Shown: positions 38,498 through 41,472 of the stretch, piece by piece | How positions within the stretch are numbered: the stretch's first letter is position 1 | Layout: the number at the start of each line of letters is the position of its first letter | From: Dictyostelium discoideum | Lineage: Eukaryota | DNA length: 64,000 nt | Reading direction: 5' to 3' | NCBI GenBank assembly: GCA_000004695.1 | Contig: CM000152.2 | Location: 320,001-384,000 of the forward strand | The notes under the pieces: generated by a model | The model's input: only the letters and a program-made list of their open reading frames with translations | Told to the model about the DNA's origin: nothing | Databases searched by the model: none | Translations under genes and position numbers: made by a program

Positions 38498-38694
38498 TTA
38501 ATCTTGGTTAAATCTTTTTAATTTATGGATTTGTACCTTAATGGCAATACTTTGTTTTTTATATAAAATAAAACCAGCAACTGCCAAACCTGAAAAACCA
38601 ACAACAGATACAACTACAGCAACTGGTACTACCCATTTACGAGATTTTGATTCGCATTCAGGTTTAAATTGAGGATCAACAAGTAATGAAAAAT
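38498..38694 (-). CDS. same gene, last exon: juxtamembrane segment, transmembrane helix (WVVPVAVVVSVVGFSGLAVAGFILY) and short cytoplasmic tail (KKQSIAIKVQIHKLKRFNQD)
   Basis: Intron 38695..38768 (GTATGT...TATTTATAG), phase 1. Hydrophobic 25-mer followed by basic residues. TAA at 38498-38500. Confidence 0.6.
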
Positions 38695-38769
38695 CTATAA
38701 ATAATTTTTAAAGAATTAATATTAATAATTTGATTTTATAAAAAAAAAATTTTAATAAAAAAAACATAC

Positions 38770-41472
38770 CTGGATCAATAAGACATTCTTTTGTACAATG
38801 TGGTAAATTTAAAACTACAATAATTGAATCAGTTTCATTTTTAATAGTTGTTGATAAAAATGTTGGTTTTCCATCAGATATAACTCTGTTGATAAATCTT
38901 GCACCTAAGATTTTATTATTTTTAGAGATTTTAATAACATTAAATGAAGTTGTTGATTGATCAGCTGAATTGGTTTCAATTTCTGTATCTTTATTATTAC
39001 AATCATTATTATAATTTGAATCTTCTACTTTACCAGCCATTGAAATCATTTCCAATTGAAGAGTATTTAAAAATGAAGAATATTGATAATTTGCAATTGA
39101 AATTGTAAATTTAACCAAACCTTTTGAAACTGTAAAAGTTGTACCTGCAAATGAGAATTCTGAATCTTGTTTAACTTCTTCAATTGTAACTGTTACTGTA
39201 CATGTTGTATTTTTTAGGGTTTGAGTAAACAAATAATTATTATTTGTATCTTGATTGTTTACAACATTTGAGGTTACCAATTTCCAATTATCTGATAAAT
39301 TAAATGTTTGAATGGTTTCACCATTGAAACTAATTTCTTTTAATGATTTAAAATAAATTTTAAAATTGGTATCTTGGTTTGAGATATTTGATTCACCATT
39401 ACCGACTGTGACTTCATTCTCTGGTACAGTTATTGTTGAATTATCATGTAATTTAATACTACAATCAAATCCATCAAATCCTTGTTTACATTTACATTCT
39501 CCATTTACTGTGTTACATGTTCCTTGATTTTCATTTGAACAATCTTTTGGACAAGCCTTAATAATTGATTCATATTGATAAATATTATTACCAATGAATA
39601 CAACACCATTTTGAGTAAGATTAACTGAATGTTTACCAGAACCTGCTGGTGCTGTACAATTAATTAAATTAGATGTATTATAAATTATAGGACAATCATT
39701 TACACCAATTGTTAAAGTTATATCTTGATGTGAATCACCAAATACTCCATAAAAGCTTGCAACACCTCCCAAAGTGTAGTTGATGGAATTACAGATGAAA
39801 TATAATGTTTTGGTTGTACATTAGCAACACAAGCAAAGGAACCAGGTTTATTTTCACATATAAAATTTGCTGAGCATGGATTATTAGCACATTCATCAAC
39901 ATCACTACAAGATTTGTTATCAGCATCCAATGAGTAACCATTTCCACATGAACAAGTGATTGATCCTCCAACATCTGAACAATTATGTTGACAACCACCA
40001 TTACCGGTTAAGCAACTACTAATTAAATTACATGTTTTATTATCACTATTTAAGAAATAGTTTGAATCACAAGAACAATAGAAACTTCCAGCTATATTAT
40101 TACAATTCTTTTCACACCCATCAACATTTGTTTGACATTCATCAATATCATTACACGTTTTACTATCTACACCCAAACTATAACCAGATTTACAAGAGCA
40201 AGAGTAAGTACCTGGACTATTGGAGCATAGTTGAGTACAACCTGAACTTCCACTTGAACATTCATCAATATCATTACAGGTTTTTTCATCACTACCCAAA
40301 GAGTAGCCTGAATTACAATAGCAAGTATAACCACCATTATTACTTAAACATCCTTGTGAGCAACCACTTGCTCCCTTATCACAGTCATTAATACTTGTGC
40401 AACTTTTACCATCACTACCCAACTCAAAACCTGTGCCACAATAGCAAGAGTATCCACCAATAGTATTTGAACATCCCTGAGCACAACCATGTGTTCCTTT
40501 TGCACATTCATCAATATCTGTACAGGTTTTACCATCACCAGCCAAAGTATAACCTGCACTACAAGAGCAAGAATAACCACCATCAGTATTACTACATGAT
40601 TGAGCACAACCACTTGTTCCTTTAGCACATTCATCAATATCATTGCAAGAATATCCATTACTAGCTAAAGTATAACCTGCACTACAAGAGCAAGAATAAC
40701 CACCATCATTATTTGTACATCCTTGTGCGCAGCTATATGTTCCCTTTGCACATTCATCAATATCATTACAAGAATATCCATTACTAGCTAAAGTATAACC
40801 TGCACTACAAGAGCAAGAATAACCACCATCATTATTTGTACATCCTTGTGCGCAGCTATCTGTTCCCTTTGCACATTCATCAATATCATTACAAGAATAT
40901 CCATTTGATGATAAAGTATATCCAGAACCACAGCTACAAGTAAAAGAATTTCCTGAAGCAACACAAGTACCTTCACAATTACTAGATGCACATGGATCAT
41001 TAACTTCACATGTCTTACCATTTGAACCCAATCTATATCCAGCAGGACAAGTACAAGTAAAACTACCACCACTGTTACTGCATCCATTAGAACAACCTGA
41101 ACTTCCTTCAGCGCATTCATCTATATCAGAACAGGATTTTAGATCACTATTTAATCTATATCCAGTTGGACAAGTACAATCAAATCCACCAACACGATTT
41201 GAGCACCCATTAGAACAACCTGATGATCCATCAGCACATTCATCTCTATCAACACAAGTTTTTGTTCCATCATCAAACACTTCAGTTACAAGATTACATC
41301 CACATAAATAACTTCCATCAGAGAATGCATAACATGAAACAACGAAACCACATGGATTTGATAAACATGGACATGGATTCCCTTCTGGTGAATAAAAATC
41401 TTTACAATCAATACATGTAGAAATTTTAATAAAACTTAACAAAATAAATAATAATGAAATTATTATTTTCAT
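38770..41472 (-). CDS. type I membrane protein exon 1: signal peptide (MKIIISLLFILLSFIKISTC), Cys-rich module, about 11 tandem calcium-binding EGF domains (DIDECA...C-x-C), then TIG/IPT-like and Cys-rich extracellular domains. Frame change (1 nt apparently missing) around 39740-39775
   Basis: Track ORFs 39718..41472 and 38708..39772 (TTG pseudo-start) overlap in adjacent frames with no room for an intron. cbEGF consensus D-I/V-D/N-E-C...C.NT.GSY.C.C..GY repeated. The exon ends ...CLIDP|G GTATGT (donor 38768). Confidence 0.65.
40560..40930. repeat. three 120-123 bp near-identical tandem repeats inside the cbEGF coding region (recent intragenic cbEGF-unit duplication)
   Basis: 40680-40741 and 40800-40861 are identical apart from one base (...ccttgtgcgcagctat[a/c]tgttccctttgcacattcatcaatatcattacaagaatatccattactagctaaagtataacctgcactacaagagcaagaataaccaccatc...). 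Confidence 0.6.

Follow-up and report, generated by a model that had tools for sequence, protein, structure and literature searches.

We describe here a gene of the dictyostelid ComC family on chromosome 3 of Dictyostelium discoideum, whose reading frame is broken in the AX4 reference sequence by two extra nucleotides. It occupies the minus strand at 38498-41472 of a window of 64,000 nucleotides (nt), the whole stretch of DNA that we analysed (GenBank assembly GCA_000004695.1, contig CM000152.2, positions 320,001 to 384,000 of the forward strand; approximately 22% G+C). The gene is already annotated in AX4, as XP_642162.1 / UniProt Q54YP0, and is a member of a known family. Taking all the evidence together, we think it likely that the organism has an intact two-exon ComC-family gene for a protein of 965 amino acids (aa), that the break is an error of the reference, and that the EGF array encoded by the first exon is changing in length.

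The frame break in the reference sequence

The coding sequence (CDS) opens with an ATG at 41472, closes with a TAA stop at 38500-38498, and contains one intron of 75 nt (38695-38769; GTATG...TATAG, with GT..AG ends). As deposited, it falls into two open reading frames (ORFs): the ATG opens a minus-strand ORF of 584 aa that stops at 39718, and a second one, overlapping the first but in a different frame, extends from about 39772 to 38708. The intron lies behind this second ORF and sets apart the last exon, whose product is DFSLLVDP..., a hydrophobic segment of 25 residues and a basic tail of 20 residues, followed by the stop. The gene lengths of the annotated orthologues are compatible with a single intron of similar size at the same place. 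The locus is that of XP_642162.1 / Q54YP0, and its orthologue in a newer assembly is KAM9948739.1 (965 aa).

We located the break at 39770-39771, where two nucleotides of the window are in excess (TG as read on the gene strand, CA on the plus strand). The window reads ACACTT[TG]GGAGGT (39765-39778 of the window being ACACTTTGGGAGGT), against ACACTTGGAGGT in the six sequences L001-L006, which come from five other genomes. The extra bases amount to one nucleotide added to the TT run and one added to the adjacent GG run. The earlier note, made from the window alone, had placed a frame break near 39740-39775 and suspected a sequence problem. The break and its location hold, and the lesion is absent from an independent assembly and from all orthologues, as that suspicion would have it; however, the one nucleotide thought to be missing turned out to be two nucleotides in excess. 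Of the six informative homologues, all except the AX4 protein model (P0010) read ...IPSTTLGGVASFYGVFG... straight through this position. The homologue index was patchy: a search with the frameshifted tail gave four candidates and passed over known exact matches, and a first search with the C-terminal half passed over true orthologues.

The closest comparison is with assembly GCA_054883475.1, of which about 55 kb (L003, L007 and L008) was compared with the window, at 99.55-99.64% identity. With 39770-39771 and the intron removed, the window CDS translates into 965 aa that are 100% identical to the protein annotated there (KAM9948739.1, ACTFIT_009937; P0130 in our set), which is encoded on a 6.43-Mb chromosome record and falls in the 90% cluster of P0011. 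Within the gene, the window and L003 differ by the 2-nt indel and nothing else. Over the whole window, the exonic differences between the two assemblies are those at 32892 (1 nt), at 39770-39771 (2 nt), at 51127, 51360 and 51415 (1 nt each), and a single-nucleotide polymorphism (SNP) at 51381; this last, the only exonic substitution, sits inside another indel cluster. Each exonic indel is a change of +/-1 in a homopolymer of 1-3 nt, and at each the long ORF is restored by the version in GCA_054883475.1.

Two biological explanations of the break were considered and rejected. A real small intron would have to use GT..AG candidates of 27-52 nt, the only ones present, which would remove conserved residues of the TIG domain described below. 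Programmed frameshifting was set aside, the shift being confined to this one allele.

The public AX4 protein model, of 941 aa, crosses the break in another way. Its exon ends at 39742, 22 nt with TT..AT ends are then skipped, a micro-exon of 16 nt in the third frame (NFNNW) follows, a further 52 nt are skipped, and the model resumes at 39651; the skipped nucleotides total 74 (≡ 2 mod 3). Across 39652-39742 the model has residues from all three frames (WEVLQAFMEY, NFNNW and SPAGSGK...). About 15 wrong residues are brought in and about 40 conserved TIG residues are left out, and Pfam no longer detects TIG in the model. Could the 22-nt and 52-nt introns around the 16-nt micro-exon truly be spliced? 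The model does exist in RefSeq and UniProt, and the 52-nt gap has GT..AG ends, but the ends of the 22-nt gap are TT..AT, its length falls far below the 75 nt of the one verified intron of the gene, and the micro-exon lies in the third frame. Moreover, the residues deleted from the TIG core, with which the Pfam match is lost, are collinear, conserved and free of gaps in all orthologues. We give this splicing pattern practically no credence: the 941-aa model is an annotation patch rather than biology, and its mini-introns are implausible.

We conclude that the frame break is very probably a base-calling error in the 2005 Sanger reference of AX4. It is probably not biological, because it is absent from an otherwise identical independent D. 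discoideum copy and from all orthologues. The assemblies of Holland et al. 2025, made from Nanopore and Illumina reads, include the NC4-derived laboratory strain AX2-214, and AX2 and AX4 are 99.5% identical at the tgrBC locus (PMC12745789). Assembly ACTFIT (GCA_054883475.1) belongs to this set and is probably AX2-214, because it shows essentially no exonic substitutions and gives exact products for other ORFs of the window. The nuclear mutation rate has been measured as 2.9e-11 per site per generation (PMC3466296), and because it is so low, several real frameshifts within 23 kb between derivatives of NC4 are not credible.

The alternative to an error is a true mutation, a 2-nt insertion that arose in the AX3/AX4 lineage alone, which would make the AX4 allele null or neomorphic: AX4 would secrete a 584-aa protein of EGF modules only, lacking the TIG domain, the supersandwich domain (SSD) and the transmembrane (TM) anchor, with AX2 and the wild strains intact. 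The insertion is, after all, present in the deposited AX4 sequence, where annotators worked around it, the AX2-like and AX4 copies of the gene differ there alone, and AX4 is known to differ from AX2 elsewhere, the chromosome 2 duplication being one example (PMC12745789). Yet it takes the form of +1 in both of two short homopolymers that lie side by side, and within 23 kb there are five ORF-breaking +/-1 homopolymer differences, this one included, all of which the other assembly resolves toward long ORFs; at so low a mutation rate, that many real events are implausible. We regard a private mutation as unlikely. It is likewise improbable that the TG insertion is fixed in AX3/AX4, making the reference strain a natural knockout of a conserved ComC-family protein that AX2 and the wild strains have kept. 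If that were true, AX4 would have an anchorless secreted EGF rod, which could contribute to differences between AX2 and AX4 in aggregation or adhesion.

Several points weigh against an intact gene behind a reference error. A two-base consensus error is unusual at about 8x Sanger coverage, and AX3/AX4 and AX2 are independent derivatives of NC4, which leaves room for a private AX4 mutation. That ACTFIT is AX2-214 was deduced by us and not read from the record, and the near-isogenic assembly from which the lesion is absent is itself probably AX2, not AX4. Neither of the window ORFs (584 aa and 354 aa) has an exact counterpart on record. The same holds for the products that an AX4-type gene might be expected to give, which we looked up by exact match with the repeats collapsed or kept apart, with the frame shifted or repaired, and with the intron read through; these negatives are uninformative, because the near-identical repeat units probably break short-read assemblies. 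Finally, a literature search on the accessions of the gene turned up no expression or mutant data and no published phenotype, and the case for its function is one of family analogy only.

Domain architecture and family placement

The 965-aa protein begins with a predicted signal peptide (41413-41472; MKIIISLLFILLSFIKISTC), recognized as a hydrophobic N-terminus; this and all features that follow are on the minus strand. Next comes an array of 12 six-Cys EGF modules (aa 30-522; 39907-41385), delimited by Pfam, by a parse of Cys spacing and by a tandem repeat of period 123. In the first ORF, Pfam finds 10-11 EGF_CA/cEGF/FXa_inhibition stretches (EGF_CA, 6.5e-75; cEGF, 2.3e-81; FXa_inhibition, 4.3e-68). 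The Cys-spacing parse yields the 12 six-Cys modules plus a truncated thirteenth EGF-like module (39820-39903; DVDECANNPCSANFICENKPGSFACVAN), read from the sequence. A first inspection had counted about 11 calcium-binding EGF modules after a signal peptide; the count agrees well enough with both parses, but not every module is of the calcium-binding type, the D-x-D/N-E-C start being found in eight of the 12 and in the truncated one.

The TIG domain (IPT/TIG; 39566-39813) is split by the 2-nt insertion. In the repaired protein Pfam detects it (PF01833, E=3e-6, 27.5 bits against a cutoff of 20.9), and the region forms a beta-sandwich in the AlphaFold 2 (AF2) model. Between the TIG domain and the SSD lies a single EGF module (39461-39553; CPKDCSNENQGTCNTVNGECKCKQGFDGFDC), which has a weak Pfam match to EGF_TEN (2e-4) and whose Cys positions are near-invariant in our family alignment A1. 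The SSD itself (38681-39418) spans the intron. It matches ComC_SSD (Pfam PF22933) with 253.2 bits against a cutoff of 24 (E=2.8e-75), over profile positions 4-222 of 222, and its predicted model is all-beta with pLDDT 80. One stretch of the 965-aa sequence from the half that holds the junction, TIG and SSD is GGVASFYGVFGDSHQDITLTIGVNDCPIIYNTSNLINCTAPAGSGK. Sequence and profile searches of the C-terminal half and of the SSD against the PDB found no significant chain.

The protein ends with a single C-terminal TM anchor, preceded by the juxtamembrane motif LIDPDFS.LV.P (consensus of A1, in which D332/P333 is invariant). The predicted TM helix (WVVPVAVVVSVVGFSGLAVAGFILY; aa 921-945, 38561-38635) was read from the sequence and is conserved in all orthologues; directly after it a basic cytoplasmic tail of 20 aa (38560-38501) leads to the stop. 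The earlier note had expected, downstream of the array, a TIG-like domain, a Cys-rich module and a last exon of its own for the TM anchor, and this was borne out by the TIG match, the EGF module and the intron.

The gene is a dictyostelid ComC-family member, and not a fibrillin or an allorecognition gene of the Tgr type. It belongs to the ComC family because its downstream half matches TIG, EGF and a full-length ComC_SSD; the SSD match is above the gathering score, the signal peptide and EGF repeats lie N-terminal to it, and the TM anchor lies at the C-terminus. The layout of signal peptide, EGF repeats, TIG, EGF, SSD and TM anchor is common to the family, and paralogues of the same architecture occur in D. 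discoideum and D. purpureum (P0056, P0050, P0001 and P0007). Among these the gene described here is a distinct unnamed paralogue: identity to the other members retrieved is only about 35-45% in the C-terminal half, and several paralogues have a shorter EGF array with less of a calcium-binding character.

PMC4931340 describes comC as developmentally essential and confined to group 4, with a product that bears EGF domains and is secreted or transmembrane; for the comC mutant, PMC2873529 reports aberrant aggregation. By analogy with ComC, we infer that the protein may be a cell-surface adhesion or communication molecule in multicellular development. The primary paper on ComC is that of Kibler et al. 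2003. A literature search on comC together with EGF and lagC turned up nothing specific.

The likeness to fibrillin is at the level of modules. Fibrillin, LTBP and fibulin proteins share with our protein the tandem calcium-binding EGF modules of 40-41 aa with D-x-D/N-E-C starts, and fibrillins are its best non-dictyostelid matches, with about 35-45% identity over the EGF half. However, in contrast to fibrillin and LTBP, the protein lacks TB/8-Cys domains, is anchored in the membrane, and has an unrelated C-terminal half (TIG and ComC_SSD). The Pfam scan of both halves found only EGF-type families, TIG and ComC_SSD, and no TB domain (8-Cys, PF00683); because it has none, the protein is not a fibrillin, and the label "fibrillin-like" in the earlier note is apt for the calcium-binding EGF modules but not for the protein.

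The resemblance of the SSD to GLMP (glycosylated lysosomal membrane protein, PDB 8r8q chain B) and to galactose-mutarotase-like supersandwich domains is one of fold only, at 7% sequence identity. In other proteins the supersandwich fold is often carbohydrate-binding, which is a lead rather than a result, and the SSD here could be a glycan- or partner-binding module. The whole would form a type I membrane glycoprotein, comprising signal peptide, an EGF rod (12-13 modules, most of them calcium-binding), TIG, EGF, supersandwich, TM helix and short basic tail. Stiffened by calcium, the EGF rod may project from a membrane-proximal base of TIG, EGF and supersandwich domains, and may hold a distal binding surface off the membrane.

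Length change of the EGF array and the comparison with Tgr genes

The tandem repeat of period 123, for which Tandem Repeats Finder (TRF) gives 5-6 copies, includes two adjacent near-identical 123-bp units (40642-40887), m5 at 40887-40765 and m6 at 40764-40642, with near-identity extending over 40625-40905. At an offset of 123, comparison of 40625-40782 with 40748-40905 shows two mismatches (40645 and 40737) over 158 compared positions. In module phase m5 and m6 differ at 2/123 positions (98.4% identity, with one amino-acid change, D->Y); phased as 40646-40768, a unit differs from the next at one position (122/123), and in this phase the single-nucleotide difference first reported for the two units is correct. 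No further unit comes closer than about 80% identity. Both m5 and m6 are unchanged in the independent assembly (L003), and this base-for-base copy led us to reject a Sanger assembly artefact as the source of the duplication.

Other genomes differ in the number of units. One of the m5/m6 pair is absent from the wild-strain contigs L001/L002, which have 11 six-Cys modules where the AX4 / AX2-like array has 12; there are 10 modules in 'cf. discoideum' genome 2, and 13 each in 'cf. discoideum' genome 1, D. citrinum and D. firmibasis. Copies of the AKGT-D/Y-SCAQGC...ASNGYSC unit number three in 'cf. discoideum' genome 1, two in AX4/AX2-like, one in the wild contigs and zero in 'cf. discoideum' genome 2, and D. 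citrinum has a run of its own with three near-identical units. At the DNA level, orthologous modules of AX4 and a 'cf. discoideum' genome are 88-94% identical, compared with the 98.4% of m5 and m6, and the AX4 duplication is therefore younger than the split from 'cf. discoideum'. The m5/m6 duplication is polymorphic within D. discoideum, although it is conceivable that identical units were collapsed into the one copy seen in the Logan contigs.

The counts of 10, 11, 12, 13, 13 and 13 modules in six orthologous alleles support the earlier proposal that the array is still changing, for which unequal exchange had been named; whole 123-bp units are gained and lost, either by unequal exchange or by replication slippage between units. 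The duplication that produced m5 and m6 is the newest such event in the NC4 lineage, and their 98.4% identity accords with the very recent internal duplication that had been proposed.

A different module type has multiplied in the D. firmibasis orthologue (P0014; L005, 8001-11050), where the middle of the array consists of nine near-identical modules of 38 aa without the calcium-binding consensus (LIDPCLNNNCQGSCV.SGSTYYCQCPSGSQLNADGKSC). These nine modules are a lineage-specific expansion with homogenisation.

The orthologue set comprises, besides the annotated AX4 protein XP_642162.1 / Q54YP0 (P0010, 941 aa), a protein from Logan contigs of public sequencing runs (P0011, 879 aa, running into the intron; carried by nine contigs, including SRR28564543 and SRR26869268), two from 'D. 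cf. discoideum' (P0009, 1006 aa; P0012, 881 aa), one from D. citrinum (P0013, 1004 aa) and that of D. firmibasis (988 aa). Between the two D. discoideum alleles compared, the wild one (L001/L002) and that of AX4, there are, besides one repeat unit, eight SNPs, seven synonymous and one nonsynonymous (T141I). The high amino-acid polymorphism characteristic of Tgr proteins does not appear between these two alleles, and a single TIG stretch is found in the Pfam scan where Tgr proteins have several in tandem.

These data bear on the suggestion that the gene is a polymorphic allorecognition or adhesion gene like the Tgr genes, with repeat variation serving self/non-self discrimination. TgrB1 and TgrC1 are Dictyostelium type I membrane glycoproteins with IPT/TIG folds at the developmental cell surface (PMC4404348, PMC12745789), and our protein is likewise a type I surface protein with TIG whose EGF module number varies among strains and species. 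Unlike the Tgr proteins, which have TIG repeats, are hyper-polymorphic and come from a rearranging locus, it combines a single TIG domain with an EGF array and an SSD. Since there is one TIG and no TIG array, the gene is not a Tgr gene, and ComC_SSD puts it in another family. The wild allele differs by one amino acid and one repeat unit, with 7/8 SNPs synonymous, and the gene is single-copy with synteny to D. firmibasis, unlike the rearranging tgrBC locus (PMC12745789). A Tgr-like role is thus very improbable. The earlier note's likening of the gene to allorecognition-type surface proteins known to be polymorphic finds no support either in the family of the protein or in its alleles.

Neighbouring genes and consequences for the reference

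Products of the window include proteins that match annotated AX4 ones with full identity. The gene is flanked by a RhoGEF/FYVE-type gene (34814-38183, plus strand) and by the P-type Ca-ATPase gene patA (44618-48104, plus strand). It is single-copy, and the gene order patA / ComC-type gene / ~1080-aa gene / ~2100-aa gene is conserved in three other species, as far as D. firmibasis.

Two further genes of the window contain indels of the same type. At 32892 the window has one extra T relative to L003, between plus-strand ORFs at 29230-32895 and 32900-33709; without it the ORFs fuse to 1507 codons, part of a gene of ~2100 aa that is unbroken in L003, L004, L005 and L006. This extra T is probably another indel error of the reference. 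In the gene starting at 49004 (plus strand), single bases are missing at 51127, 51360 and 51415, in addition to the SNP at 51381, relative to L003/L007. The frame of the window there enters a poly-Ile/Asn stretch and stops at 51370; in the other assembly the frame passes through a His/Asn/Gln-rich repeat and on into the ORF at 51482-52051, and the product is a RING-finger protein of 1016 aa.

Long A/T homopolymers in introns and intergenic DNA (for example at 12066, 12149, 12404, 33763, 34342, 37951, 48896 and 58939) are 5-20 nt shorter in the Nanopore/Illumina assembly, and homopolymer lengths of this kind account for most of the ~0.4% difference between the assemblies. Elsewhere in the window, two segments of about 1.8 kb (15735-17512 and 18028-19799), some 2.3 kb apart, are ~88.6% identical. 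They look like a local tandem gene duplication, in a region where the other assembly annotates zf-TRAF/MATH-domain genes.

With two nearby genes showing the same type of indel, this stretch of chromosome 3 needs care in knock-out design, in proteomics databases and in domain censuses. The EGF array provides a small, clean example of a conserved surface protein whose modules are still being gained and lost and evolve in concert; such length change is the expected behaviour of tandem EGF repeats and opens no new question. The main value of our analysis is a correction: the right product of the gene is the 965-aa protein, as annotated in the newer assembly (KAM9948739.1), and domain censuses that draw on the AX4 proteome may miss this protein as a carrier of both EGF and TIG.

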